A stretch of DNA of 11,846 nucleotides. Origin: a virus. Lineage: Duplodnaviria; Heunggongvirae; Uroviricota; Caudoviricetes. Below the pieces are notes generated by a model. The model saw nothing but the letters and a program-made list of their open reading frames with translations, was not told the origin of the DNA and did not search any database. Position 1 is the stretch's first letter, and the number at the start of each line of letters is the position of its first letter. The stretch spans positions 1 through 11,846 of the IMG/VR virus record IMGVR_UViG_2579779084_000004; one strand, 5' to 3'. Shown one piece after another: positions 1 through 11,846 of this stretch. The position numbers and the translations under genes are program-made.

Positions 1-176
1 GCGGTTTTTGTCAGTTTTTTGGATGCCAGCAACTGATTGAACATATTTCCTGGTTTGCCACCACCTATATACGACCAACGCCCCCACATCCGTAATTTCC
101 CCTGGATCCAGACGGCTTCCAGCGTTTTTAGACGTAAATGCTCGCCGCTTTTGCCTGTAATTTCCGGGTATATCAT
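1..176 (-). CDS. Partial CDS (N-terminal 58 codons, continues past window start): possible late-gene antiterminator Q-like protein
   Basis: ATG at 176 (minus) reads open to position 1: MIYPEITGKSGEHLRLKTLEAVWIQGKLRMWGRWSYIGGGKPGNMFNQLLASKKLTKT. The WG-W motif and the position immediately downstream of rusA fit lambdoid Q genes. No clear SD; assignment from memory of Q N-termini only. Confidence 0.35.
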   Translation of the reverse strand, partial: MIYPEITGKSGEHLRLKTLEAVWIQGKLRMWGRWSYIGGGKPGNMFNQLLASKKLTKT

Positions 177-184
177 ATTTACGA

Positions 185-550
185 TCACTCACTCTCAATT
201 TTGTAAATCTTCACGCCCAGCCGCCCCCCAGGAACGAGCTGACCGCGCACAATATTGATTTCATCAAACTGCTCGTCGTCTATGAGAAGTCCGGCATGCG
301 TCAGCGCATCCAGTGGTGCTTTCAGGATATTGTCCAGGTCACGACGACGTTTATCCGGTGGCTCTGCAATAATCTTTATCGCCAGCCTTCCGGACAGGTT
401 TAATTTCAGCCGCTGCTGGCGAACAATAAGCGCCACATCACGGCGATAACGCTCACCGGCTTTTGATACAAAATATGTGCTGCCACGACGTCGCCAGTAA
501 GTGTTCACCGTTGGCGGGTAAGGCAAAACAAATTCTATGCGTTCAGTCAT
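185..550 (-). CDS. rusA: RusA-family Holliday junction resolvase (crossover junction endodeoxyribonuclease)
   Basis: 121-aa ORF with ATG start; contains the DKRRRDLDN motif and overall resemblance to E. coli RusA. Its ATG directly abuts the upstream stop (TGAATG), typical nin-region context. Confidence 0.88.
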   Translation of the reverse strand: MTERIEFVLPYPPTVNTYWRRRGSTYFVSKAGERYRRDVALIVRQQRLKLNLSGRLAIKIIAEPPDKRRRDLDNILKAPLDALTHAGLLIDDEQFDEINIVRGQLVPGGRLGVKIYKIESE

Positions 551-1609
551 TCATGCTTTCCACTTCAGGACACCCGAATTTCTCGCGTGCATTAAAAAAC
601 GAATCAGCAACAACAGCTGGCTGCCGTGTTTTTCTTCAAAATCTTTTACCCCGGCGTGTAGTTCGCTATGGCATTTACGGCACAGCGGAATAACAAACAA
701 ATCATCAGCCTTTGTTCCCATCCCTCCCAGTCCATGACCCATGATATGATGCGGATCATCTGCCTGATTGCCACACGTCATGCATTTCTGCGTTTTTACC
801 CAACGCGTGTATACAGGCATCTCTTCCCGTTGTGGTTTCTGGCGCTGGAGATACTGAGCCGGTGACTCCGGATCAACGGCAATGCTGACCACCGTCTTTT
901 CCTGTGGTGGATTCTGTTGCTGGTGGGCGTGAGGCAACGGCGCAATATTTTTTGTGCGCTGCTTCAGTATGCTGATGGCGGTCTGCTCTCCCGGTACGAT
1001 GTCGCTCTCGCGGTATACTGAGCGGATTTTTTCACCCGGAAGCTTCAGGATTCGACGCGCCATATTTTCGGTCATGGCATCCACTACATCATTTACAGAA
1101 GCCCAGCAGCACAATTCAGCCAGCGATAATTCCCGCTCCTGCGTGCCATTCACTGCATGGCGTATGACGTCAATCATCCATGCTGACAGGTTTTGATGAG
1201 CAAGTTGCCCGAGTGATTCGGAGGTCTGGTCACGCAGCTGGTTGTCGCAGTGCCAGCACAACACCATTGCGCCGATACCATAACGATGTATGACGGTTTC
1301 GCTGTGATGATAATCGCCGTGTGGCCACTGGCAGGATTTAACGTGGCGTAACAGCCAGTCAGACAGCGCACCAGCACCGCCAGCAGCACGAATCACCCGC
1401 TCATCGCTGAAAAATGGCAGTAGTGATTTATCCTCCGCCAATGGCTGGCGAACGGCAGGAACGACTCCGGACGGCAGACCGCGCATGCTTTTCGGTTCCG
1501 GCTCCACCAGTACACGACCGCTGCGGAATACCTGCATGGATTCACGACCAGGCTTAAGGACCACCAGCCCAAGTTCCGGTACCGGAACAGATCGAAGTAA
1601 TACCCGCAC
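551..1609 (-). CDS. DUF968-like phage protein with Cys/His-rich (HNH/zinc-finger-like) segment
   Basis: 352-aa ORF with GTG start at 1609 preceded by GGAGG at 4-5 nt spacing. Contains CMTCGN...HHIMGHG...CRKCHSELH; sits immediately upstream of rusA as DUF968 genes do in E. coli prophages. Confidence 0.65.
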   Translation of the reverse strand: MRVLLRSVPVPELGLVVLKPGRESMQVFRSGRVLVEPEPKSMRGLPSGVVPAVRQPLAEDKSLLPFFSDERVIRAAGGAGALSDWLLRHVKSCQWPHGDYHHSETVIHRYGIGAMVLCWHCDNQLRDQTSESLGQLAHQNLSAWMIDVIRHAVNGTQERELSLAELCCWASVNDVVDAMTENMARRILKLPGEKIRSVYRESDIVPGEQTAISILKQRTKNIAPLPHAHQQQNPPQEKTVVSIAVDPESPAQYLQRQKPQREEMPVYTRWVKTQKCMTCGNQADDPHHIMGHGLGGMGTKADDLFVIPLCRKCHSELHAGVKDFEEKHGSQLLLLIRFLMHARNSGVLKWKA

Positions 1610-1610
1610 G

Positions 1611-1883
1611 TTACCTCCAGAACCGTTGCTGGAATGTGCGGGACGGACGCGGTGGGCGTTCGGAATAAGGGAGTCTGACGTAGATTATCCAGTGACGATA
1701 ATCGAGGCTGAGGGCTTTCTTAATCTCGTATCCGTGTCTGCGGTAGCGCTGAATCAGCCATTCGGCCTGTTCTTCAGTACATGGTGGGTGTTGGTACCAG
1801 TCGGTTTTAAATGCGTGTGAACGCCGCCCATGCCGGATGGCAAGGGCGGTATCAGAATTGTGAAATTTGGTTTTGTGCGCCAT
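1611..1883 (-). CDS. Hypothetical phage nin-region protein (90 aa)
   Basis: ATG at 1883 (MAHKTKFHNSD...), downstream of a terminator hairpin; stop sits 1 nt before the DUF968 GTG. The track's longer GTG start at 2042 would place the terminator inside the gene. No strong SD. Confidence 0.4.
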   Translation of the reverse strand: MAHKTKFHNSDTALAIRHGRRSHAFKTDWYQHPPCTEEQAEWLIQRYRRHGYEIKKALSLDYRHWIIYVRLPYSERPPRPSRTFQQRFWR

Positions 1884-1952
1884 CGGTTGTCTCTGCTGGC
1901 GCAGCAGGTGCCAGTTGTTCAGGCTGGCGTGCGAATTGTAAACCAGAATGCC

Positions 1953-1983
1953 AGGAAAAAACAAAACCCGCCGAAGCGGGTTA
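1953..1983 (-). terminator. Rho-independent terminator (probable 3' end of the hok mRNA)
   Basis: Plus-strand aacccgc-cgaa-gcgggtt (1965-1982) is a 7-bp stem with tetraloop; on the minus strand it is followed by TTTGTTTTTTCC. Lies about 70 nt downstream of the hok stop. Confidence 0.55.
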
Positions 1984-2050
1984 AGTGCGGGTGCGTTGAG
2001 GATGCCTGACTCATCAGAGGTGGCGAGGGATTTCTCCCTCACCTGGTCTC

Positions 2051-2206
2051 TTACTCCTCAGGTTCGTAAGCTGTGAAGACAGCGACCTCCGTCTGGCCGG
2101 TTCGGATTCGTACCTCGCAGAGGTCTTTCCTCGTTACCAGTGCCGTCACTATGACGGTTAAACAGATGACGATCAGGGCGATTAACATCGCCTTTTGCTG
2201 CTTCAT
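2051..2206 (-). CDS. hok: Hok/Gef-family type I toxin (51 aa, HokD/RelF-like membrane peptide)
   Basis: ATG at 2206 gives MKQQKAMLIALIVICLTVIVTALVTRKDLCEVRIRTGQTEVAVFTAYEPEE, which I recognise as Hok family: single TM helix plus the conserved C-terminal TGQTEVAVF motif. Confidence 0.85.
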   Translation of the reverse strand: MKQQKAMLIALIVICLTVIVTALVTRKDLCEVRIRTGQTEVAVFTAYEPEE

Positions 2207-2263
2207 AGCCTGCTTCCCCTTGCCTTTCGGCACGTAAGAGGCTAACCTACATTTGTGAGACAT
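2051..2263 (-). CDS. mok: Mok-like in-frame leader reading frame (70 aa) overlapping hok
   Basis: ATG at 2263 with GAGG 8 nt upstream; the N-terminal extension MSHKCRLASYVPKGKGKQA- is in frame with hok, as in chromosomal mokC/hokC. Confidence 0.45.
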   Translation of the reverse strand: MSHKCRLASYVPKGKGKQAMKQQKAMLIALIVICLTVIVTALVTRKDLCEVRIRTGQTEVAVFTAYEPEE

Positions 2264-2330
2264 AGATTGGGCCTCAGATTAATGTTAAGCGTCTTGCAGG
2301 ACGCGTAATGTTAACTGGGGCTTTTCTCTA
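2230..2330 (+). ncRNA. sok: Sok-like antisense RNA region (boundaries approximate)
   Basis: Inferred from hok/sok architecture: antisense to the hok leader and mok initiation region. A plus-strand TTGCCT...TAACCT promoter-like pair lies near 2219-2247. No clean terminator identified, so ends are uncertain. Confidence 0.3.
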
Positions 2331-2375
2331 TCTGCCTTTTGGTGTTCATGCCTGAGACAGATAGCCTCAAGCACC

Positions 2376-2420
2376 CGCAGTTATTCTACTTAACTAAGAT
2401 TTCCCCGCAAACCGTTTTTG
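2376..2420 (-). promoter_or_regulatory. Probable hok mRNA promoter and 5' end
   Basis: Minus strand reads TTGCGG-16 nt-TAGAAT (-10 at 2383-2388). The predicted transcript start GGGUGCUUGAGGCUAUCUG... resembles the 5' end of R1 hok mRNA as I recall it. Confidence 0.35.
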
Positions 2421-2465
2421 TCCGGCACAGTAAATATCCAACTAAACCAATGGCGTTCGCTGTAT

Positions 2466-2645
2466 TTACCGCCAGTATTCAATGCACATGACCGCCATGA
2501 ACACCCCTAAAAAAAGGGCATTTATATGTCCAAACATTAATATCAAAACATCAATTTTTTCCATATACCTTGCTGTGAAGATGATGGGCATACATGATGC
2601 GAACAACCAGAACGCAACAAACAAAAACTGCAATGCGTTTTTCAT
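2466..2645 (-). CDS. Putative small hydrophobic membrane protein (59 aa) in AT-rich island
   Basis: ATG at 2645 preceded by GGGGG with 4-nt spacing; MKNALQFLFVAFWLFASCMPIIFTARYMEKIDVLILMFGHINALFLGVFMAVMCIEYWR has two hydrophobic stretches. AT-rich codon usage; no homolog recognised. Confidence 0.3.
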   Translation of the reverse strand: MKNALQFLFVAFWLFASCMPIIFTARYMEKIDVLILMFGHINALFLGVFMAVMCIEYWR

Positions 2646-2765
2646 TATTCCCCCTACAATCAATGTGCAATAACATTTAAACACACCTCAATTTGGCCGG
2701 ACATATAAATATCTAAACCAGAAAAAATCACTTACATAGCGTTACAAACTCTTTAGTCTAAATAT

Positions 2766-3281
2766 TCATCGTAAAACATCCTCCACGCTTATCAGTCCAT
2801 TTGGTTTCAGGTAATCCATCGCCTTCTCCGGTAATTTGCAGTCCGGCTGAGCTTTTTTCAGTTGACTGACCAGTCGTTTAACCCACATTGTTAATTCGCT
2901 AACCTGATTGCCGGATGCTGGTGGATTGTCGGCTTTACCCAGAATGGCAGCGCAGCAGGCCTCTCTGAGCACCCAGTCAACAGCATCCTTCCATGCTCCT
3001 GTTTCGACTGGCGGATTCTCACGCTTTACCTGTTCATAAAAGCGCACGGCTTTAACCAGTCCTTCTGATGTCACCGGGACTGGCGGGCCGATGAATAAGG
3101 CCTGAATTTCATAGTTCGGCCTGTCGTTACAATCCTCTTTTGTCGGTACATATTTCCAGTCACCAGCCCACGGCTTCCCCTGAAAGTCTGTAACGTCTTT
3201 TTTCACGTAGCGATATCGCCATGCAACTGGTTTTGCCTGCCCTGCCGTTTCATGCCCTTCCTGATAATTAATCTCGCTCAT
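2766..3281 (-). CDS. Hypothetical phage protein (171 aa)
   Basis: ATG at 3281 overlaps the upstream stop (ATGA); long ORF with normal composition. No family recognised. Confidence 0.55.
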   Translation of the reverse strand: MSEINYQEGHETAGQAKPVAWRYRYVKKDVTDFQGKPWAGDWKYVPTKEDCNDRPNYEIQALFIGPPVPVTSEGLVKAVRFYEQVKRENPPVETGAWKDAVDWVLREACCAAILGKADNPPASGNQVSELTMWVKRLVSQLKKAQPDCKLPEKAMDYLKPNGLISVEDVLR

Positions 3282-3454
3282 TCATCGCCCCACTCATCAC
3301 AATATGCTTCGATCGGAGTTTTTCCTGCTTCATAATCATCACGCCATGCTTCAGCATCAGCAGCACTGCCACCACGTAACTCTGCATAGTCCATTAACAG
3401 TTCATGCCATTCTTCAAAACTGACGTTGTATTTAGTTGAACCAAAATCAGCCAT
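3278..3454 (-). CDS. Small acidic protein (58 aa), absent from the ORF track (below length cutoff)
   Basis: Hand translation from ATG 3454: MADFGSTKYNVSFEEWHELLMDYAELRGGSAADAEAWRDDYEAGKTPIEAYCDEWGDE. GAGGAAG SD lies upstream; start overlaps the upstream stop (ATGGCTGA) and the stop overlaps the next ATG (ATGA). Confidence 0.45.
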   Translation of the reverse strand: MADFGSTKYNVSFEEWHELLMDYAELRGGSAADAEAWRDDYEAGKTPIEAYCDEWGDE

Positions 3455-3629
3455 TTTGTTCTTCCTCTTCGTCTTTTATTTCGTGATATGAGTAATTGCA
3501 GTAGTTAAAGAAAATATCTTTTGCTTCGTCATGTATTTCATCAGGCGTCGCATCATCATCCACTTCGAATTCATCCTCGAAATCTCCACCGGCTATTCCC
3601 GTTTCAATAATTATTTTAAACTTTCGCAT
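3447..3629 (-). CDS. Small highly acidic protein (60 aa; about 20 Asp/Glu against 5 Lys/Arg)
   Basis: ATG at 3629; AGGAGG SD at 3653-3658 is separated from the ATG by a 16-nt GAAA-tetraloop hairpin. Sequence MRKFKIIIETGIAGGDFEDEFEVDDDATPDEIHDEAKDIFFNYCNYSYHEIKDEEEEQNG. Confidence 0.5.
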   Translation of the reverse strand: MRKFKIIIETGIAGGDFEDEFEVDDDATPDEIHDEAKDIFFNYCNYSYHEIKDEEEEQNG

Positions 3630-3636
3630 TTAACTA

Positions 3637-3652
3637 CCGCCCTTTCGGGCGG
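3637..3652 (-). promoter_or_regulatory. Stable hairpin (CCGCCC-GAAA-GGGCGG) between SD and start codon: split ribosome binding site
   Basis: Perfect 6-bp GC stem with GNRA-type loop on the mRNA strand, flanked 5' by AGGAGG and 3' by 7 nt then ATG. Confidence 0.5.
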
Positions 3653-3722
3653 CCTCCTGATGTTCTGAGGGTGCAGAAATCCCTCCGGTTAAGGATTAAA
3701 TTTTTAACAGAGCTAAATTTAA

Positions 3723-4079
3723 TTATTCAGTTCTGGATTTTGTCGCCCTGCGTATCCGCGCTTTCGCGTTACGCTCAATCTGAATTAGCTTTTCTATATT
3801 TTTTCGCCTTTCCCGCTCCTCCTGACGCAAGAGCCTTACATCATCTGCCAGTCTGGTTTCTCTTTTCGCCACAGAGAGCATCCAGTCAAATGGCTCCACA
3901 ACTGCACCGCATATTTTACAGCGGACCTGACGCTCTTTTTCGTCAACCCGGACAGAGGCGTGATGACAATATGGTCTTTCCGATGGCTCATAAAGAAAAT
4001 TAACCTGATTACGAGGGTCATCCTCTTTTACCGGAAATAAAACGATATTGCTTAACTCATCCTCTGGTTTTATTTCCAT
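3723..4079 (-). CDS. Hypothetical protein (118 aa) with Cys/His cluster and basic coiled-coil-like C-terminus
   Basis: ATG at 4079 with GGAGAGGAG upstream; YCHH...CKICG cluster and a C-terminal Arg/Lys/Glu-rich segment. Overlaps the upstream gene by 23 bp. Confidence 0.55.
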   Translation of the reverse strand: MEIKPEDELSNIVLFPVKEDDPRNQVNFLYEPSERPYCHHASVRVDEKERQVRCKICGAVVEPFDWMLSVAKRETRLADDVRLLRQEERERRKNIEKLIQIERNAKARIRRATKSRTE

Positions 4080-4518
4080 GCTCCTCTCCTTTGATGCGAA
4101 TGCCAGCGACGCGTAATGCGTGTTCTAAGTCAATCAGGTAAAGCCAACTGCCATTTTCTTTAGGTATCATGACATGTCGCTCATCTGCATTTATCGGGTG
4201 TCCATATCGAAGGTCGTAGCGAGTCGGTAATTGAACTTCCCGCGCTTCCAGTTCAGCAATACGCTTGCTCCCATCAGAGATAACGCCTTCGTAATACTCA
4301 CGCTGCTCGTTGAGTTGTGATTTTGCTTCTTCCAGTCCATCCAGCAAATCAGCGATAATATCCGCTTCCCGATGACGGATGTGACGCTTAAACGCAGCAA
4401 GAGCCGCATCACAATCCCGTTCAGCATTTGGGCTGTCCGGGATAGCCTGATACCACGCCAGCGTCGACTGATAGTTTTGTGCTGCCTCACGAAGCGCCTC
4501 ATAGTTAACCTCTCTCAT
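4057..4518 (-). CDS. Hypothetical phage early protein (153 aa)
   Basis: ATG at 4518 preceded by AGGAGGTGG; ATGA overlap with the upstream gene. No family recognised with confidence. Confidence 0.55.
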   Translation of the reverse strand: MREVNYEALREAAQNYQSTLAWYQAIPDSPNAERDCDAALAAFKRHIRHREADIIADLLDGLEEAKSQLNEQREYYEGVISDGSKRIAELEAREVQLPTRYDLRYGHPINADERHVMIPKENGSWLYLIDLEHALRVAGIRIKGEEHGNKTRG

Positions 4519-4811
4519 TGAGCCACCTCCTGATAAATCACCGCATGCCCCAGTTTCTCCGCCAGTGCCAGCTCTGCCTTAGCGCCCGCTGACCGCTGCC
4601 AGCCTTTCAGCATGTAAATCGCATCCACACAACGAATCATTGCCATGCAAATATCCATGTAGTGCGGCTGTGTCAGCCCGTCCGGAAGTACTGCCGGGTT
4701 CAAGACTGTATGCCCTTCCCGTTTCAGTTCCTCTTCCGCCTTGTGGAACGCCTCACGGTTGAAATTTTTATACCCGGTCATTGGACCGGCAATATAAACT
4801 CTCACCCTCAC
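4515..4811 (-). CDS. DUF4406-like protein (nucleoside 2-deoxyribosyltransferase-like fold), 98 aa
   Basis: GTG start at 4811 (GTGA overlap with upstream stop); N-terminal YIAGPMTG...NF..F...AEE.L...GH.V.NPA pattern recalled for DUF4406 proteins. Confidence 0.55.
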   Translation of the reverse strand: MRVRVYIAGPMTGYKNFNREAFHKAEEELKREGHTVLNPAVLPDGLTQPHYMDICMAMIRCVDAIYMLKGWQRSAGAKAELALAEKLGHAVIYQEVAQ

Positions 4812-5125
4812 TCCTGAACTCTCCTGTCGAAATAAACGTAGTTATTCACTGTGCGCAACGGCATTCCAAATTTTCTGGCGATTTCTCTCCTGGGTACGCC
4901 ACGCTGATGCAGCTGTCGCGCCAGTTCAATATCACTCTGCGGATATTTTGTTGACTGGTGATAATCACCCCGTAACATCAGGCTGACACCCAGTTCCCGC
5001 GCTTTCGTTCTGACAGCATCACCTGTACGACCGGTCAGCCTCCCAATGCTTTCGACCGTCATCGTTCCCGCACACTGCCGGAGTATCATGATTTCAGCCT
5101 CGTACCACTTCTTCCAGCCACTCAC
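4808..5125 (-). CDS. Small helix-turn-helix DNA-binding protein (105 aa)
   Basis: GTG start at 5125 (GTGA overlap) with GGAGAG upstream; HTH-like segments [21 protein letters not shown] and [19 protein letters not shown]. Confidence 0.5.
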
Positions 5126-5883
5126 CGCTGCAGCTCTCCGGTCGCGGTAATATCACGAAGAATATCCCGGTGCTTGTTCAGCTCCCGCAGCGCGGCGCAG
5201 ACTCGTTCCCACTTCTGGACATGACTTTTCGCCCGACGCAGTTCGAGGTTTGCCATATGCAGCGATGGTAAAATCAGGTCATCCGCTCGCGTTTCAGTAA
5301 ACGATGGCAGCGACTGCACAATGCCCGCTACAGTTTCTGTTTTAATTTCTTCCTGTGTTGCGGCTTCCCGGACTGGTAACGCAACACCTGCTGGCTGAGG
5401 AAAGGCCTTACCATCATTTTCCGTTACCGATGCTGCTTTCGGCTCTGCTGGTAAATTACCGCCCGGCATGCAGTAACGAAATTTACCGCTCTGATTAACG
5501 CGTGCCAGCCGCCCCGTTGCAGTTACCACCGCCAGCGTGGAAGCAACCTTGCGAGTACTGATGCCGAACTTACCCGCCAGTTCCTCACACGTTTTAGCCC
5601 CATCCTGACCGATAAACTCAATCATCATGTCTGCTGTAACTTTTTGTTCGACCTCCCCGGTCAGCATATCCTGTGCTTCAGATTTTACTGGCCGCTCTTC
5701 GGTTACCAGGGATTCACTTTCGCCAGCCAGAAACCAGGTGTGACCAGTTTTATCAACGACGCCATTTCTTTTGAGTTCCCACAGCTCGTTGAGAACCTCT
5801 TCACGACTGATATCAAGTCGCGCGGCCAGTTCTACCGATGTGGCTTTTCCCATTGCTTTCAGTGCGTCAAAAACGGTTTCCAT
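5122..5883 (-). CDS. Phage protein with tandem winged-helix-like segments (253 aa; DUF977/DUF1627-like, occupying the Rac ydaW position)
   Basis: ATG at 5883 with GGAGGAAA SD 5 nt upstream; two HTH-like segments ([27 protein letters not shown] and [23 protein letters not shown]). Family name uncertain. Confidence 0.6.
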
Positions 5884-5904
5884 TAAAATTTCCTCCGGAC
5901 AAAA

Positions 5905-6651
5905 TTACTTCACAACCCTCAGGTGTCTGACATTCGAACGCCAGCTCTCCCAGTTAAAATTCACCCAGCGACCACCGTTCATGACCATGCGGTCCATCAC
6001 ACGCTCGCCAAGAAGCGTACTCATCGCTACGTGGTTCAGGTTCGTCAGCATTCCGACACTACGCATCGAAGCCGTTCTGCGGTCGACTATCTGGTTCAGT
6101 GTGACCTGCTCGTTGCGCGTATCCCGCTGCATTCCGATTTCATCCAGGACAAGCAGGTCAACATCACACAACCCCTGTAAAAATTTTTCGCCTGAGTTTT
6201 TGTTGTCGTAGCTGTTGTGTAACGCCAGCATCACATCAGCCACCGTTATCACAATCACGCTGCGACCTTTCGCCAGAAGATGATTGCCAATGGCGGCTGC
6301 AAGGTGGTTCTTTCCGGTACCCGGCTTACCGCTGAACACAAAATTCGTGCACCCGGTCATCAGTTCGTCAGCGATGGATTTTGCCTGGCTCAGCGCATGT
6401 TTTTGCCCGTCGTTCTGCACCTGATAATTCGCAAACGAGCATTTGCTGTGCAGAGGCTGGATGCCCGAACGATTCAGGATTTTTTCCACCCGCAACTGGC
6501 GATTCTGGCGGTTGATCTCCTCGCTACGTTTTCGCCCTTCTGCCAGTTGCCACTCGCGCCACTCGTCCACTGTCCGGTACGGCGCGATTACATGCTGCGG
6601 GGTCAGCTTACGGATACGCTCAAGAACACCACCTGTCGCGATATTTTTCAT
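5905..6651 (-). CDS. DnaC-like replicative helicase loader (AAA+ ATPase; Rac YdaV-like)
   Basis: 248-aa ORF with Walker A GKPGTGKNHLA and Walker B LLVLDEIG; resembles DnaC/IstB-type loaders and sits immediately downstream of the initiator gene. Confidence 0.88.
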   Translation of the reverse strand: MKNIATGGVLERIRKLTPQHVIAPYRTVDEWREWQLAEGRKRSEEINRQNRQLRVEKILNRSGIQPLHSKCSFANYQVQNDGQKHALSQAKSIADELMTGCTNFVFSGKPGTGKNHLAAAIGNHLLAKGRSVIVITVADVMLALHNSYDNKNSGEKFLQGLCDVDLLVLDEIGMQRDTRNEQVTLNQIVDRRTASMRSVGMLTNLNHVAMSTLLGERVMDRMVMNGGRWVNFNWESWRSNVRHLRVVK

Positions 6652-6657
6652 GGCCCG

Positions 6658-7623
6658 TTACCCCCTGAACCCCGGCGGAATTTCGGTATCCGGCTCAGAA
6701 ATATGATTCACGCAACGCTGTACAGACGAACGCCCCAGGCGGATAACCAGTTCATCCCATTTTTCGCGAAGCTTTGACGGACTCATGATATTTTTTACCC
6801 AGAATGGATCCCGCTGCGCCCGACCAAACATTTCACAAATTTGTCTGTGAGTTCTGCCATCCAGCATCCGCATTGTGCGCACGTCGTTGGCCCATGCGGT
6901 CCAGTTGGGTTCTTTCGGTCGCGAAATCTCGCCATCATCGCTGGCGGCCTGCTCGTAAAGACTCACGATTCGTCCCCAGATCCACTGCGCACACGCCAAA
7001 TCTTCCTGGTTGCCCCACTGGCGTTTTTTTGCACTGAACACAACCGCGTCAGGGTGTCGGGTTAAAAAATCCTGTTCAACCGTCTGCGGGTCCGGTTGCG
7101 AAGCTTCCGGACGAGAAGTGTTTTTATTCTCTGTAGTAATCTCTGTTGTATTCTCTGTAAGATCATCAGGCCATTTTGACCCGATGACATTGAGTCGTTT
7201 TGAACCAATGGAACGTGCCATTTTGGCCCCTTCCATCGTGTCATTCTGACCTGATGGAGCAGCGCATTTTGACCTGATGGATTCGCTCACTTTGCCACCA
7301 TTTAAAAGCTCGCTCTCGTAATTAATCGTGTAAAAATTAGTCATATCACGCTTTGATTTATTGAGCTTTTCGCAACGCAAAAGCCCCAGCGTTTTCAGAC
7401 TTGCAAATGCGCGTTTTAACGTTGACTCTGACCAGAACGGGAACTGCTCCAGCCATTGTTCTGTTGTGTTATAAATCCAGCGAACACCATCACATTCCAT
7501 GCCGGAACCGGTATCTCTCAACCAGTAATGCAACTGCTGCAACACGATGGCTTCGTTCAGACCAATTTTCATCGCCAGCTGCGTGTTTATAACCAGCGGA
7601 CGTTCAGCAAAAAGGAGCTTCAT
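6658..7623 (-). CDS. Replication initiation protein (lambda O-like replisome organizer), 321 aa
   Basis: ATG at 7623 (MKLLFAERPLVINTQLAMKIGLNEAIVLQQLHYWL, typical phage replisome-organizer N-terminus). The central low-complexity region is encoded by DNA iterons; the C-terminal domain precedes the DnaC-like gene. Confidence 0.78.
   Translation of the reverse strand: MKLLFAERPLVINTQLAMKIGLNEAIVLQQLHYWLRDTGSGMECDGVRWIYNTTEQWLEQFPFWSESTLKRAFASLKTLGLLRCEKLNKSKRDMTNFYTINYESELLNGGKVSESIRSKCAAPSGQNDTMEGAKMARSIGSKRLNVIGSKWPDDLTENTTEITTENKNTSRPEASQPDPQTVEQDFLTRHPDAVVFSAKKRQWGNQEDLACAQWIWGRIVSLYEQAASDDGEISRPKEPNWTAWANDVRTMRMLDGRTHRQICEMFGRAQRDPFWVKNIMSPSKLREKWDELVIRLGRSSVQRCVNHISEPDTEIPPGFRG
7172..7375. 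repeat. Probable origin of replication: five ~23-bp-spaced iterons plus adjacent AT-rich segment, inside the initiator gene
   Basis: Direct repeats of consensus CATTTTGACC(Y)GATGGA starting at 7172, 7196, 7219, 7242 and 7265, followed by an AT-rich stretch around 7300-7375. Confidence 0.6.
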
Positions 7624-7643
7624 CCCCCCCCCAGAACACGTTA

Positions 7644-8069
7644 TCAATGCGCCACCACGGCATTTCCCGCCGGACCACCACGATTCATCTGATCGAACAA
7701 CACGATCGCTGCCGCAACAAACTCATCGATATCTTTCACCAGGCGCTCCCGTCGCTCGACAAGCTCCCGGTGATATTCCGAACTGTGGCTGCGCATTCGG
7801 GCCACCAGTGGAGGCGGCATTGCTTTTTCGATCGCCGGTAACAACGCCTGAATTTTTTTAACCGCATCAGGGGTGTCTTTTTCTACCCAGCGGAAAATTT
7901 TCTGGGTATTACGAGACAGGGCTTCCGGATGGCTGTCGTCATACAGTTCAGGAAACGTCATCCCCAGTTCGAAATAAGTCCGGGCTATTTCAGCTGCAGG
8001 AACTTTCTCACCATCAGGGTATGCCCAGGCATTCATCGCCATGCGGATGTGCTCATGTTTGATTTTCAT
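7644..8069 (-). CDS. ydaT: YdaT-like protein (CII-like regulator of Rac-type prophages)
   Basis: 141-aa ORF beginning MKIKHEHI, which I recall as the Rac YdaT N-terminus; immediately downstream of the Cro-like gene. Confidence 0.75.
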   Translation of the reverse strand: MKIKHEHIRMAMNAWAYPDGEKVPAAEIARTYFELGMTFPELYDDSHPEALSRNTQKIFRWVEKDTPDAVKKIQALLPAIEKAMPPPLVARMRSHSSEYHRELVERRERLVKDIDEFVAAAIVLFDQMNRGGPAGNAVVAH

Positions 8070-8376
8070 GAATCATTTGCCTCTTGATGCTTCGGGTATG
8101 ATCGTTTTCGTCATTTGGTTGCTTCATCGACATATTCTGCGAATAACATGACGAGCGTCGTAAGTATGTCCAATCAACATCAGGACGAAGTTCTTCACAC
8201 AGGACACCACCTTTTGTTGCTCGTTCAATCGCAGGACATCTCTCAGCAGGTAACTGACGTACACCTTTGATCCATTGATTTACGCTTGGAGGAGATACAC
8301 CTAAAAGCCTAGCCATTGCTGATTGCCCACCGACAACAGCACAAGCTCGTTTGAATGAATAGTTATCTTTTTTCAT
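8053..8376 (-). CDS. ydaS: YdaS-like Cro-type HTH repressor
   Basis: ATG at 8376 with GGAG 8 nt upstream; MKKDNYSFKRACAVVGGQSAMARLLGVSPPSVNQWIKGVRQLPAERCPAIERATKG closely resembles Rac YdaS. Divergent from the CI-like gene. Confidence 0.8.
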   Translation of the reverse strand: MKKDNYSFKRACAVVGGQSAMARLLGVSPPSVNQWIKGVRQLPAERCPAIERATKGGVLCEELRPDVDWTYLRRSSCYSQNMSMKQPNDENDHTRSIKRQMIHENQT

Positions 8377-8403
8377 CGAATGAACTCCAAAAAACACGCA
8401 ACA

Positions 8404-8474
8404 ATATTAGGCTTAGCCTAATGAAATTGTCAATAGGCTAAGCCTAATACATCGGGAGTAGGGATTGCCTAACG
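8404..8474. promoter_or_regulatory. Divergent immunity control region: three 17-bp palindromic operators (TTAGGC-N3-GCCTAA) overlapping a PR-like promoter for ydaS and the racR promoter
   Basis: Operators at 8406-8422 (perfect palindrome ATTAGGCTTAGCCTAAT), 8432-8448 and 8458-8474 (one mismatch). Minus-strand promoter: -35 TTGACA (8428-8433), 18-bp spacer, -10 TAATAT (8404-8409). Confidence 0.6.
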
Positions 8475-8500
8475 CGATGCGCATAGGAGACTATTAAGCA

Positions 8501-8977
8501 ATGCTTAGTGGTAAAGACTTAGGCCGAGCGATAGAGCAGGCCATTAACAAAAAAATTGCATCAGGAGCCGTCAAATCAAAGGCGGAAATCGCACGTCATT
8601 TCAAAGTCCAACCACCATCAATCCATGACTGGATTAAGAAAGGTTCGATAAGTAAAGACAAACTTCCAGAACTATGGCGTTTCTTTTCTGATGTGGTTGG
8701 TCCAGAGCATTGGGGGCTTAACGAATACCCCATACCAACCCCATCCACTTCAGATACAAAAAGTGAACTTTTAGACATAAACAGCCTTTATCAAGCCGCC
8801 TCTGATGAAAAAAGAGCAATTGTGGCTTTCATCTTATCTGGAAATGCTACGGAGCCTAGTTGGGTTGATCATGACGTTCGCGCCTACATTGCCGCAATGG
8901 AAATGAAGGTAGCTAACTATCTGAAAAATCAAGAATCAAAACGGAAAAGCCAGAACATCACCAAGACAGGAACTTAA
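8501..8977 (+). CDS. racR: RacR-like prophage repressor (CI-like, 158 aa)
   Basis: MLSGKDLGRAIEQAINKKIASGAVKSKAEIARHFKVQPPSIHDWIKKGSISKDKLPELW... matches Rac RacR as I recall it; N-terminal HTH; AGGAG SD upstream; divergent from the Cro-like gene. Confidence 0.82.
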   Translation: MLSGKDLGRAIEQAINKKIASGAVKSKAEIARHFKVQPPSIHDWIKKGSISKDKLPELWRFFSDVVGPEHWGLNEYPIPTPSTSDTKSELLDINSLYQAASDEKRAIVAFILSGNATEPSWVDHDVRAYIAAMEMKVANYLKNQESKRKSQNITKTGT

Positions 8978-9070
8978 ACTTATATGGTCCGACGGGAAAT
9001 TCCTAGTTCCCGTTAGTTAACTCCTACTACCTCTTCCACAAACCATCACCTATTAGGTTGCGCCCAAATT

Positions 9071-9114
9071 ATTAGGCATAGCCTATTGACAAGTAATTAG
9101 GCATTTCCTATAGT
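9071..9114 (+). promoter_or_regulatory. PL-like early promoter with overlapping operators
   Basis: -35 TTGACA (9086-9091), 17-bp spacer, -10 TATAGT (9109-9114). Operator ATTAGGCATAGCCTATT (9071-9087) overlaps the -35; a second copy (9095-9111) overlaps the spacer/-10; a degenerate third lies near 9051-9067. Confidence 0.65.
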
Positions 9115-9295
9115 TTTCCCATACCAACCCATCCCGTCCCACACAATACAGGGCAATACCTCGAGTTACCAGGCAGTGGTCAGGGGTTAAGTAGCCAGCC
9201 CGAGGCGTAAGAACATGACGGCAGGGTTCAACTTTAATAACTATGCAGCAGGTTTTTGTTCCGCTACCCCGGCGTTAAGGGGAAATGAGGTCAAC

Positions 9296-9451
9296 ATGGA
9301 TACTATCGATCTTGGCAACAACGAATCTCTGGTATGTGGCGTGTTCCCCAACCAGGACGGTACGTTCACCGCGATGACGTATACCAAAAGCAAAACGTTT
9401 AAAACCGAAAATGGTGCCCGTCGCTGGCTGGAAAGAAACTCAGGTGAGTGA
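9296..9451 (+). CDS. ydfA: Small protein, YdfA/YdaF-like (DUF1391-type, 51 aa)
   Basis: ATG at 9296 with GAGG 6 nt upstream; MDTIDLGNNESLVCGVFPNQDGTFTAMTYTKSKTFKTENGARRWLERNSGE. First gene after the PL-like promoter, as in the Qin dicB operon. An in-frame ATG at 9215 would give a 78-aa alternative. Confidence 0.6.
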   Translation: MDTIDLGNNESLVCGVFPNQDGTFTAMTYTKSKTFKTENGARRWLERNSGE

Positions 9452-9452
9452 T

Positions 9453-9581
9453 ATGGATTTCGACACAATCATGGAAAAGGCTTACGAAGAATACTTCGAA
9501 GGCCTTGCCAAAGGCGAAGAAGCTCTCAGCTTCAGTGAGTTTATACAGGCGCTTTCCAGCTCGGCAAAATCTAACGGCTGA
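9453..9581 (+). CDS. ydfB: Small protein, YdfB/YdaG-like (42 aa), absent from the ORF track
   Basis: Hand translation from ATG 9453: MDFDTIMEKAYEEYFEGLAKGEEALSFSEFIQALSSSAKSNG; AGGTGA SD 5 nt upstream; starts 1 nt after the preceding stop. Confidence 0.55.
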   Translation: MDFDTIMEKAYEEYFEGLAKGEEALSFSEFIQALSSSAKSNG

Positions 9582-9610
9582 TAAGCGAAGCAGCACCGCG
9601 AGGAATCAGT

Positions 9611-9850
9611 ATGCAGAAACGAGAACCCGTCATCATCGCGCCAGACTATACCGATGATGAACTTTATGAGTGGATGCACCAGAAAATTAAGGCTGCGCAG
9701 GACCTGAAATGGGCCAATGAAGCCAGGGCTAAGCAAGCTGAAAATCTGTCCGCTCTGGAGCAGGATATCACCAATCTGGAAAAAGCAGCGGCATTAAGCA
9801 TTGCCAAGAATGATTACATACCCACGTTAATGGCTAACCAACGAGGCTAA
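9611..9850 (+). CDS. Small protein, YdfC-like (79 aa)
   Basis: ATG at 9611 with GAGGAA SD 5 nt upstream; coiled-coil-like AKQAENLSALEQDITNLEKAAA. Position matches ydfC in the Qin dicB operon; length differs from what I recall, so no symbol assigned. Confidence 0.55.
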   Translation: MQKREPVIIAPDYTDDELYEWMHQKIKAAQDLKWANEARAKQAENLSALEQDITNLEKAAALSIAKNDYIPTLMANQRG

Positions 9851-9852
9851 TA

Positions 9853-10260
9853 ATGGAATTTAAAGATTTACCAAAAGAAATCCAGATAATTGCTGCAACG
9901 ACACTCGGTGATAGTCTGCTGAAAATTGACCCGGCATACACCAAAAAAGAAACCATCGATAATATGGTTCGTAATGTGCGCAATGCTTTTTCAGGGCTAT
10001 ATGGTTCTGATAATCAAAAACAGGAAAACGATATTGATGAACGGGTAATTTCTGTTTGCCTGAATGGTCATGTTATTTCAGCAATCAGAACAGAAACGGC
10101 AACTGCTTTTGATTATCTCTGCATGATTCAGAGTCTTGCTGATGTTCTGTTGAAATCAAAAGATTTAGAAAACGATGCAAATTTACAGGGGCGCACAATA
10201 GCACATCCATATGCACATACTTTAGGCTCTGTGGATATCAAAGATCCCACAAATCTTTAA
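9853..10260 (+). CDS. Hypothetical protein (135 aa), AT-rich, no recognised family
   Basis: ATG at 9853 sits 2 nt after the ydfC-like stop with GAGG 6 nt upstream, so it is co-transcribed with the early operon. Composition is markedly more AT-rich than flanking genes. Confidence 0.55.
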   Translation: MEFKDLPKEIQIIAATTLGDSLLKIDPAYTKKETIDNMVRNVRNAFSGLYGSDNQKQENDIDERVISVCLNGHVISAIRTETATAFDYLCMIQSLADVLLKSKDLENDANLQGRTIAHPYAHTLGSVDIKDPTNL

Positions 10261-10471
10261 TGAAATAGTTAACGCGAATTGTACTTGCTCTTTCAGTTGC
10301 TTTCAGAATACGCGTTGAAACTGCTGGCGGTAATTTAGTATTCCATTTATTAAAATCATGCCCGGAAAAGTACTCTTCGAAAATACTTTTAACTGCAGAC
10401 TCGCCTATTGAAATGCTGCTTACCATGCGATTTTGATAAAGGCATTTAGCAATAAGAGTTGATTTTAACAT
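10238..10471 (-). CDS. Hypothetical protein (77 aa), convergent with and overlapping the 3' end of the 135-aa gene
   Basis: ATG at 10471 preceded by AGGAGGG at 4-nt spacing; AT-rich; 23-bp 3' overlap with the plus-strand gene. No family recognised. Confidence 0.45.
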   Translation of the reverse strand: MLKSTLIAKCLYQNRMVSSISIGESAVKSIFEEYFSGHDFNKWNTKLPPAVSTRILKATERASTIRVNYFIKDLWDL

Positions 10472-10794
10472 TCACCCTCCTGAGGGTTGGTAATTAAGGA
10501 GTTCTCCACGGGTGAGGTGGAGTGCGTGCGCCGGACACGGGTGAGCATCCGGCACTGACAGTTTACTGAAAGGATATATCCCTGAAAAGTCAGGGCATAA
10601 CACGAAAGCGTACGGCGAAGGCCTTCACCTATGAGGCTTGTCGTTAAATTTAATTCGACCGTACGCTTCCGGTTGTGGCAATCCGCGAAATGGCGCGGCG
10701 GTAAGTATGGCAGGGGTACTATTCTCCCTCCCCTGTGGAGCACCGGGTTGTCAGGTTGACCATACGCTTAAGTGACAACTCCGCTGCAACAACC

Positions 10795-10857
10795 CATGCT
10801 GATTACCTTTTGGCGGGTATCCGTTTTTTGTTTTCCCTTGTGATACCCGCCCTTTTT
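10795..10857 (+). ncRNA. dicF: DicF-like small RNA (divergent variant) with intrinsic terminator
   Basis: UUUGGCGGGUAUC...GAUACCCGCCCUUUUU forms a 10-bp stem (10812-10821 with 10842-10851) plus U5 tail, resembling the K-12 DicF 3' region as I recall it. Lies about 180 nt upstream of dicB, as in Qin. Confidence 0.5.
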
Positions 10858-11040
10858 AAAGTGAATTTTGTGATGCGGTGAATGCGGCTCAGCGCACGCG
10901 GAACAGTTAAAAAGGCCAGTTGACTTCCGTATTGGTTCTTATGGGTGGGTTCTCTGTATCCGGCGTTAATTGTTAACTGGTTAACGTCACCTGGAGGCAC
11001 CAGGCGCCGCATCACAAAATTCATTGTTGAGGACGCGATA

Positions 11041-11229
11041 ATGGAAACGTTATTACCAAACGTCAATACGTCTGAAGGTTGTTTTGAAATTGGTGTCAGA
11101 ATCAGTAACCCTGTATTTACTGAAGATGCCATTAATAAGAGAAAATACGAACGGGAGCTATTAAATAAAATATGCATTCTTTCAATGCTGGCCCGTTTAC
11201 GCCCGATGCAAAAAGGATACTGGCAATGA
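11041..11229 (+). CDS. dicB: DicB cell-division inhibitor (62 aa)
   Basis: ATG at 11041 with GAGGA SD; METLLPNVNTSEGCFEIGVRISNPVFTEDAINKRKYERELLNKICILSMLARLRPMQKGYWQ is near-identical to K-12 DicB as I recall it. Confidence 0.85.
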   Translation: METLLPNVNTSEGCFEIGVRISNPVFTEDAINKRKYERELLNKICILSMLARLRPMQKGYWQ

Positions 11230-11429
11230 ATACTGCTATTGCCCTCACTCTGACTGTTTTTCTTAATACTGGCGAGCCTGTTGACATGGTTATTAACATT
11301 TACGGTTCAATGAAAGAATGCATAGCTGCCGCAGCAGAACAAAAAATTCCCGGTAACTGCTATCCGGTCGATAAAGTTATTCACATGGATAATAACGAAA
11401 TCCCGGCAGGACTTAAAACAGCGCCGTAA
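11226..11429 (+). CDS. ydfD: YdfD-like small protein (67 aa; hydrophobic N-terminus), translationally coupled to dicB
   Basis: ATG at 11226 overlaps the dicB stop (ATGA); MNTAIALTLTVFLNTGEPVDMVINIYGSMKECIAAAAEQKIPGNCYPVDKVIHMDNNEIPAGLKTAP; position as ydfD in Qin. Confidence 0.55.
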   Translation: MNTAIALTLTVFLNTGEPVDMVINIYGSMKECIAAAAEQKIPGNCYPVDKVIHMDNNEIPAGLKTAP

Positions 11430-11508
11430 TTAATATCCGGTTTCATTTTATATGCCAGCAATGGCAGGGATTTGTTCACCCTTAAATCTGTAATGAGGTT
11501 AAAACAAC

Positions 11509-11846
11509 ATGAGTAAAGTCTTTATTTGCGCCGCTATTCCGGACGAACAGGCAATAAAGGAAGAAGGTGCAGTCGCTGTAGCCACTGCCATTGAAGCTGG
11601 CGACGAACGCCGCGCCCGTGCCAAATTTACCTGGCAATTCCTGGAGCAATATCCGGCTGCTCAGGACTGCGCTTATAAATTTCTTGTTTGCGAGGATAAA
11701 CCCGGTATACCCCGCCCTGCCCTCGATTCCTGGGATGCTGAATATATGCAGGAAAACCGCTGGGATGAGGAGTCAGCTTCCTTTGTCCCGGTTGAGACTG
11801 AATCAGATCCGATGAACGTCACTTTTGACAAGCTGGCCCCTGAAGT
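11509..11846 (+). CDS. Partial CDS (N-terminal 112 codons, runs off window end): probable RecE-like exodeoxyribonuclease VIII
   Basis: ATG at 11509 with GAGG upstream; open to the window end (MSKVFICAAIPDEQAIKEEGAVAVATAIEAGDERRARAKF...). The N-terminus resembles prophage exonuclease VIII annotations as I recall them, and the position matches recE in Rac. Confidence 0.45.
   Translation, partial: MSKVFICAAIPDEQAIKEEGAVAVATAIEAGDERRARAKFTWQFLEQYPAAQDCAYKFLVCEDKPGIPRPALDSWDAEYMQENRWDEESASFVPVETESDPMNVTFDKLAPE

Follow-up and report, generated by a model that had tools for sequence, protein, structure and literature searches.

Where does the prophage whose DNA we examined begin to replicate, and which sequences would its initiator bind and open there? 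The stretch analyzed (the window: all 11,846 nucleotides of positions 1 to 11,846 of the Caudoviricetes virus record IMGVR_UViG_2579779084_000004) is a lambdoid prophage region of E. coli. Its minus strand carries an O-like replication initiator gene in which an earlier note had proposed a λ-style origin. We found that a segment at ∼7090-7302, within the linker-coding part of this gene, appears to be built like oriλ, and we judge it very likely to be the replication origin of the prophage. The proposal is supported by collinearity with oriλ and the phage P22 origin, by the homology between λ O and the C-terminal half of the initiator, by conservation at the DNA level, and by recurrence across a family of initiators. 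The parts of the candidate origin and its surroundings are as follows.

6658-7623, minus strand: O-like replication initiator gene; 321 amino acids from the ATG at 7623, stop codon included
7300-7359, minus strand: AT-rich stretch upstream of the iterons, the coding end of the N-terminal domain; not a conserved origin element
7280-7302, minus strand: degenerate sixth iteron, the most upstream; AATGGTGGC-AAAGT-GAGCGAATC; in the 23-bp register, 9 mismatches to the consensus
7257-7279, minus strand: iteron 1; CATCAGGTC-AAAAT-GCGCTGCTC; 5/9 arm complementarity
7234-7256, minus strand: iteron 2; CATCAGGTC-AGAAT-GACACGATG; 7/9 arm complementarity
7211-7233, minus strand: iteron 3; GAAGGGGCC-AAAAT-GGCACGTTC; 7/9 arm complementarity
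7188-7210, minus strand: iteron 4; CATTGGTTC-AAAAC-GACTCAATG; 7/9 arm complementarity
7164-7186, minus strand: iteron 5, nearest the AT-rich array; CATCGGGTC-AAAAT-GGCCTGATG; 2 mismatches to the consensus, 7/9 arm complementarity
7125-7160, minus strand: AT-rich array of three 12-mers, the proposed DNA unwinding element; TTACAGAGAATA-CAACAGAGATTA-CTACAGAGAATA; period 12 by Tandem Repeats Finder (TRF)
7090-7112, strand-neutral: palindrome GTCCGG-(11 nt)-CCGGAC, downstream of the 12-mer array

Iterons, 12-mers, and palindrome of the candidate origin

The initiator gene contains, at 7164-7279 (minus strand), five contiguous 23-bp imperfect palindromes that make up the iteron array; their centers are 23, 23, 23, and 24 bp apart. 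Their consensus is CATCGGGTC-AAAAT-GACCCGATG (full 23-mer CATCGGGTCAAAATGACCCGATG), with fully complementary arms. The earlier note had read repeats starting at 7172, 7196, 7219, 7242, and 7265 on the plus strand. These starts were confirmed, and the count of five stands, but each copy is really a 23-bp imperfect palindrome, and the degenerate unit at 7280-7302 has to be added to the array; relatives show a clearer GTCAAAGTGAC core at that position. The third copy does not follow the direct-repeat consensus in its 3′ half, yet it agrees with the palindrome model: its arms are unlike those of the other units, and the core and register are retained. Self-similarity of 7164-7302 at lag 23 is 0.53; 1143 other window segments, each taken at its best lag between 15 and 31, gave a mean of 0.33 (standard deviation 0.024, maximum 0.42). 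Arm complementarity of 7/9, found in four of the five iterons, is reached by 0.19% of all window 23-mers. With at most five mismatches, the 23-mer consensus, which was derived from the same five copies, matched five sites, all in register, and none in each of 100 dinucleotide-preserving shuffles. Both the periodicity and the palindromy of the iterons are far beyond chance. TRF found only the 12-mer array and did not detect the 23-bp iterons, because their copies are too divergent.

As the note had stated, the iterons encode the linker between two domains of the initiator: 7164-7302 corresponds to amino acids 108-153, between an N-terminal domain (amino acids 1-110) and a C-terminal domain (∼amino acids 186-294). 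The same location, inside the initiator gene and between N- and C-domains, is found in oriλ. Also shared with oriλ are at least four imperfect inverted-repeat iterons at about two helical turns (20-24 bp in λ; 23-24 bp in the window, which has five plus one degenerate), an AT-rich region with an A-rich strand that adjoins the last iteron on the promoter-distal side, and a palindrome beyond it. In Salmonella phage P22, the annotated rep_origin likewise lies inside the O-like gene 18, and the order is again iterons, ∼12-nt A-rich repeats (TACAAAAGACAA twice), and a CCCCCT...AGGGGG palindrome. The tripartite layout of iterons, 12-mers, and palindrome is shown to be collinear with oriλ and the P22 origin. 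Lambdoid origins vary in iteron number (PMC7466680), and those of the 933W and P27 type phages, which convert their hosts to Shiga toxin (Stx) production, have six. DnaA boxes were not enriched, and none was found in the origin.

The 12-mer array starts 4 bp past iteron 5, downstream of the iterons in gene direction. Its guanine-plus-cytosine (GC) fraction is ∼0.30, and it lies inside the least stable 40-bp duplex of the initiator gene (z score 2.5). Among relatives, the array is essentially invariant and keeps a GC fraction of 0.30-0.37, and 40 bp of it recur at 97.5% identity in initiator genes of Stx phages whose N-domain and iterons differ. A BLASTP alignment sets the peptide encoded by the 12-mers, DLTENTTEITTEN, opposite DTKDTITKEKRKD, which is encoded by the AT-rich region of λ. 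We propose that 7125-7160 is the positional homolog of the λ and P22 AT-rich regions and the putative unwinding element. Beyond it, the palindrome at 7090-7112 sits where λ has GTCAGAG-(14 nt)-CTCTGAC and P22 has CCCCCT...AGGGGG. In 36 of 54 relatives, the 64 nt that follow the array contain an inverted repeat of at least 5 bp, a figure that stands without a chance control.

Whether these repeats are kept for the protein or for the DNA can be judged from codon positions. A 23-bp period is not divisible by 3, and the five iterons are thus read in three frames, as SIRSK, PSGQN, GAKMA, SIGSK, and VIGSK; the DNA repeat therefore cannot result from a repeat at the peptide level. The SIRSK, SIGSK, and VIGSK motifs that the note had described are correct for three units, and PSGQN and GAKMA are the readings of the other two. 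We then compared third codon positions with the window in an alignment of ten relatives (72-97% N-domain identity), which gave the following identities.

N-domain: 0.56
Segment 7300-7359: 0.59
Iterons: 0.82
12-mer array: 0.98
Sequence after the array: 0.62

Conservation of synonymous sites is much higher in the iterons than in the flanking code, and the constraint therefore acts on DNA. On these alignments, the iterons and 12-mers are shown to be conserved at the DNA level beyond coding needs.

In the mechanism that we propose, N-terminal winged-helix dimers would bind each palindrome, and units 23 bp apart (∼2.2 helical turns) would assemble an O-some-like nucleoprotein complex. The resulting strain, combined with rightward transcription from a pR-like promoter, would open the low-stability 12-mers at 7125-7160. 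The λ O-like C-domain and a DnaT-like tail would bring in the host DnaB helicase, which would be recruited via a phage DnaC-type loader where one is present and presumably via host DnaC where it is absent. In λ, the iterons are 19-bp imperfect inverted repeats, two of them with the adjacent AT-rich tract are enough for unwinding, and O binds single-stranded AT-rich DNA (PMC7466680).

The initiator and its family

The initiator gene encodes three recognizable parts.

7294-7623, minus strand: N-terminal winged-helix domain, amino acids 1-110; presumed iteron-binding module; AlphaFold predicted local distance difference test score 84.8
6742-7068, minus strand: λ O-like C-terminal domain, ∼amino acids 186-294; BLASTP to λ O, 35% identity over 148 amino acids, expectation value (E) 9e-28
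6661-6726, minus strand: C-terminal tail SVQRCVNHISEPDTEIPPGFRG, amino acids 300-321; NCBIfam NF002770 (DnaT) positions 158-179 of 179, E 0.003

As a whole, the protein matches PHROG 391, “replication initiation O-like” (E 9.8e-96; amino acids 18-321 on profile positions 13-298 of 298), and its relatives are named “hypothetical protein,” “DNA replication protein O,” or “Primosomal protein I.” A Pfam search at E up to 0.01 returned no family, neither PF04492 (Phage_rep_O) nor RepA_N. The description as an O-like protein in the earlier note holds for the C-terminal half, which is homologous to λ O, but not for the N-domain, which has no PF04492 match and whose family profile showed no relation to the N-half of λ O by hhalign (probability 0.3). 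By these profile comparisons, the protein is λ O-like only in its C-terminal half, and its N-domain, modeled as a winged helix, belongs to a family different from the N-domain of λ O.

The RepA_N plasmids of Gram-positive bacteria carry iterons inside rep, between a DNA-binding N-domain and a host-specific C-domain. Their initiators gave the top fold match: the N-domain model is closest to the staphylococcal plasmid initiator N-domains 4pql, 5kbj, and 4pt7, with template modeling scores of 0.54-0.63 and E of 2e-3 to 7e-2. This match is weak even at its best (E 2e-3), is not accompanied by a sequence-level match, and concerns plasmid rather than phage systems.

The tail, the last 22 residues of the protein, ends in ...SEPDTEIPPGFRG / ...VNHISEPDTEIPPGFRG and is nearly identical to the extreme C terminus of E. 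coli DnaT (primosomal protein I), ...VNTVSEPDSQIPPGFRG; the PDB DnaT chains 2ru8, 6aep, and 9zbt match it. The similarity to DnaT is limited to this tail, but the gene order is also alike: a dnaC-type gene follows the initiator as dnaC follows dnaT, and dnaT and dnaC are in the same operon (PMC13377028). The same 2026 paper on the DnaT preprimosome does not state a function for the extreme C-terminal tail. IPxGFRG is also the C-terminal ending of several relatives whose C-domains are quite different. The distribution of this tail suggests that it may be a portable motif for coupling to the DnaB-DnaC system.

We scanned one genome per species with an alignment of the N-domain and recovered 80 loci at 97-48% identity in Enterobacterales, Pseudomonas, Acinetobacter, Thiothrix, Desulfuromonas, Hydrogenimonas, Taibaiella, Bacillus and relatives, and Staphylococcus. 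At most loci, the N-domain is followed by an array of ∼3-8 palindromic units spaced 21-24 bp apart, and the iteron core varies by N-domain clade (GGTCAAAATGACC, GGGCAATTTGCAC, GGACAATTTGTCC, GTGCCAAAATGGCAC, and GTTCAAAATGAAC). Directly after the iteron array, 53 of 78 loci have a cluster of exact CAGAGA units, two to five in number and spaced 9-14 nt apart (mostly 12); over both strands of 400 kb, only one comparable cluster was found elsewhere. The consensus of a unit is A-C-W-A-CAGAGA-W-T-A-C, in (T)ACWACAGAGAWTAC 12-mers. Behind this same set of N-domain, iterons, and 12-mers, the C-domain may be of the λ O-C-like, Phg_2220_C, or DnaB_2 (DnaD-like) type. Among 34 close relatives, the tripartite layout and an intact initiator open reading frame (ORF) are kept across 21 distinct sequence variants.

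Searches that started from the array led to the same kind of gene. By blastn, the 51-bp array matched ∼100 phage records, and among the 60 matches listed, all annotated features were replication-type or hypothetical. A pattern search of viral contigs found 119 arrays, of which 117 lie in ORFs of at least 150 amino acids, 83 of these with the N-domain of the window. Most of the remaining array ORFs have different N-domains that share its conserved sequence motifs, and many have their own phased repeats upstream. In the non-λ “O” gene of Stx phages such as Stx1_14040, the CAGAGA 12-mer array also directly follows the gene’s own iterons, and the N-domain is distantly related to that of the window (hhalign E 3.6e-5); these Stx phages differ from the window in iteron sequences, C-domains, and downstream helicase genes.

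The N-domain itself is widely distributed without a Pfam-A model, with 370 database matches and 139 phage records (Staphylococcus, Vibrio, Bacillus, Listeria, and others). Because the 120 matches listed for the 110-amino-acid N-domain query were all shorter than ∼195 amino acids, full-length homologs were taken from the genome loci. From Enterobacteria to Staphylococcus, Bacillus, Acinetobacter, Thiothrix, and Bacteroidota, the 12-mer array is kept as a DNA sequence and in every case comes immediately behind type-specific iterons, whereas iterons, N-domains, and C-domains diverge.

An array of this type was also seen on the 8.4-kb Bacillus plasmid pBSG3 (NC_014104.1), where 740-845 holds three CCTACAGGGAAA units at ∼22-23 bp and, directly after them, three CAGAGATTAC units (TTACAGAGATTACTACAGAGATTACTACAGAGATT). 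The array is situated upstream of the sole annotated gene, rep, and is overlapped only by an unannotated 63-amino-acid ORF with a TTG start that reads CAGAGA in a third frame, as LQRL. No cognate winged-helix initiator gene was found in the 2.3 kb examined; this orphan array could be a decoy or a hitchhiking site.

How the 12-mers would act can be suggested only tentatively. It is possible, although we would not call it probable, that they are more than an AT-rich tract that melts readily and form a sequence-specific origin element common to a very large superfamily of winged-helix initiators from phages (and some plasmids). The element would be recognized, when single-stranded or distorted, by a conserved portion of the initiator or by a host replisome component that is universal. 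By analogy, such sequence-specific reading could resemble that of DnaA-trios or of the 13-mers of bacterial and plasmid origins. Literature searches with the 12-mer sequence and the TENTTEITTE peptide returned only unrelated primer matches, and no description of in-gene phage origins with a CAGAGA motif was found in the searchable literature, which does not prove that none exists.

An in-gene lambdoid origin is textbook knowledge, and so is the combination of a shared AT-rich region with a type-specific N-domain and the iterons that match it. What is new here is a different N-domain family and iteron sequence within this kind of origin, and the near-invariant 12-mer array that crosses phyla is the one feature that a specialist might find notable. 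In practical terms, the analysis gives base-level coordinates for a candidate prophage origin in a gene that RefSeq calls “hypothetical protein” and corrects the flank at which opening is expected. It also makes a widespread N-domain that lacks a Pfam model recognizable by a DNA signature, type-specific iterons followed by CAGAGA 12-mers, from which in-gene origins may be predicted in many phages of pathogens (Staphylococcus aureus, Acinetobacter baumannii, and Klebsiella, for example) and in Stx phages. The near-invariant 12-mers would offer a handle on how phage initiators open DNA and pass it to the helicase.

Alternative explanations and counterevidence

The repeats might be a mere by-product of a low-complexity, SIRSK-type protein linker and have no function as DNA. 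The iterons do encode the interdomain linker, and 140 of 149 CAGAGA units across the family are read in a single frame, as T-E-x-T. We regard this explanation as extremely improbable: the 23-bp period places successive iterons in three frames, synonymous sites are conserved, CAGAGA units stand in different frames within single genes at 8 loci, and the pBSG3 iteron and CAGAGA array lies outside an initiator gene. Moreover, ACA (Thr) and GAG (Glu) are minor codons in E. coli, and the 12-mer array favors them, with ACA for 4 of 5 threonines and GAG for 3 of 3 glutamates. The question of which flank opens is a different one. The earlier note had placed the AT-rich unwinding region at ∼7288-7375, upstream of the iterons, and one may suppose that this stretch, or both AT-rich flanks, would open. 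Within the window, 7300-7359 does have a GC fraction of 0.25-0.30, and the instability of the 40-mer at 7321-7361 (z score 2.4) comes close to that of the 12-mers. The AT-richness is lost, however, in eight of nine relatives, where the homologous segment has a GC fraction of 0.38-0.45 (the closest relative stays at 0.30). The rise comes through synonymous changes, third-position identity (0.59) is like that of ordinary code, and the segment encodes the conserved structural end of the winged-helix domain. Both λ and P22 have their AT-rich region on the opposite flank of the iteron array. Opening upstream is thus improbable in our view, and the assignment in the note has to be replaced by the conserved element at 7125-7160, which falls outside its interval.

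The array might instead be bound by the initiator and serve mainly as a regulatory or exclusion site (autoregulation, titration of initiators from related phages, or incompatibility), or it might be an inactive relic in a defective prophage. Ectopic copies of the λ origin are reported to inhibit λ (PMC4488673, PMC3349717). The orphan array of pBSG3 would suit such a role, and the window belongs to a mosaic prophage region that most E. coli genomes share piecemeal. Against this stand the full λ-like layout and intact ORF in the 21 distinct variants among 34 close relatives and the presence of the same initiator in the isolated phages PhiR42_1, HannyBb, and mEp460. We consider a mainly regulatory or relic array unlikely.

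Several points also weigh against the interpretation of ∼7090-7302 as the origin. Binding, unwinding, and replication, for this element and for the initiator family as a whole, are steps that we infer by analogy with λ. Iteron binding by the N-domain is argued from position, fold, and co-variation, because the domain is not detectably related to that of λ O. The co-variation of iteron type with N-domain clade is suggestive, but it is also expected from physical linkage of the two, and we set this correlation aside as proof of binding for that reason. The 12-mers exceed the segment at 7321-7361 only slightly in instability (z scores of 2.5 and 2.4), and an exact CAGAGA cluster is absent at 25 of 78 loci, several of which have degenerate versions. 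Finally, the prophage may be defective, and the origin may therefore not fire in this strain.

Helicase loader, gene order, and neighboring loci

All genes near the origin lie on the minus strand, in the order promoter, Cro/YdaS-like, cII/YdaT-like, initiator, and loader.

8404-8433, minus strand: pR-like promoter TTGACA-18-TAATAT, from a consensus scan only
8053-8397, minus strand: Cro/YdaS-like gene
7644-8069, minus strand: cII/YdaT-like gene
5905-6651, minus strand: DnaC-type AAA+ helicase-loader gene; 248 amino acids; NF009043, PF01695 IstB_IS21, PHROG 50

The loader scores 499.5 bits against NF009043 (cutoff 389; positions 1-248 of 248) and 66.9 against PF01695 (cutoff 24.1). Against NF005931, the E. 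coli DnaC equivalog, it reaches 316.6, under the cutoff of 357, and it is therefore a DnaC paralog and not DnaC itself. The downstream gene is thus of the DnaC/IstB AAA+ type rather than a λ P-type partner. The note had described a self-contained module of initiator, iterons, and DnaC loader. A DnaC-type gene does follow the initiator, but the link was overstated: a DnaC-like gene lies within 2.5 kb of the initiator in only 21 of the 72 viral contigs that come from close relatives, share the λ O-C-type initiator, and extend far enough downstream. PhiR42_1, mEp460 (mEp460_4F5), and four close genome loci have none, and unrelated genes follow in PhiR42_1 and mEp460_4F5. Judged by this gene content, the core unit is the predicted initiator with its putative origin, and the loader is accessory. 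A DnaT-like tail together with an optional DnaC-like gene suggests a way in which such initiators might use host DnaB-DnaC directly.

As in λ, where the C-half of the initiator is homologous, the gene lies in a pR-type operon behind cro-like and cII-like genes. The pR-like promoter, as placed by the consensus scan, would transcribe the cro-like and cII-like genes, the initiator gene through the origin, and the loader gene; no terminator-like sites were found between promoter and origin. The differences from λ are nevertheless considerable. The N-terminal DNA-binding domain is unrelated in sequence, and the origin has five or six 23-bp iterons where λ has four of 18-19 bp and of another sequence. 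Three regular CAGAGA 12-mers take the place of the ACAAAAGA-type repeats of λ, and the protein has a DnaT-like tail and a DnaC-type partner instead of λ P. P22 differs in another way: its gp18 has a λ-type N-domain with another C-domain, and the partner is a DnaB-type helicase (gene 12).

The closest chromosomal matches to the window are E. coli sequences at 97-98% identity, in which the initiator is labeled “hypothetical protein.” At 90% DNA identity, the initiator gene also occurs in the isolated phages named above.

Within 7644-8397 (minus strand), the gene in the cro position matches Pfam YdaS_toxin and also Pfam P22_Cro, and the gene in the cII position matches Pfam YdaT_toxin and also PHROG 163, “CII-like transcriptional activator”; in a prophage context, these “toxin” labels may mislead. 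Divergent from the cro-like gene, in the repressor position, is a 158-amino-acid ORF (8501-8977, plus strand) with no Pfam or PHROG match. The closest genome, which covers 82% of the window, holds a different helix-turn-helix gene in the repressor position.

We dropped a reading of the origin region as an RNA element because an Rfam scan of the whole window gave no match there. The sole match in that scan was a sok RNA at 2201-2376 (minus strand; RF01794, 120 bits), which together with an ORF at 2051-2263 marks a hok/sok-type type I toxin-antitoxin locus. At the equivalent spot, the closest genome has an annotated hokD-like gene.

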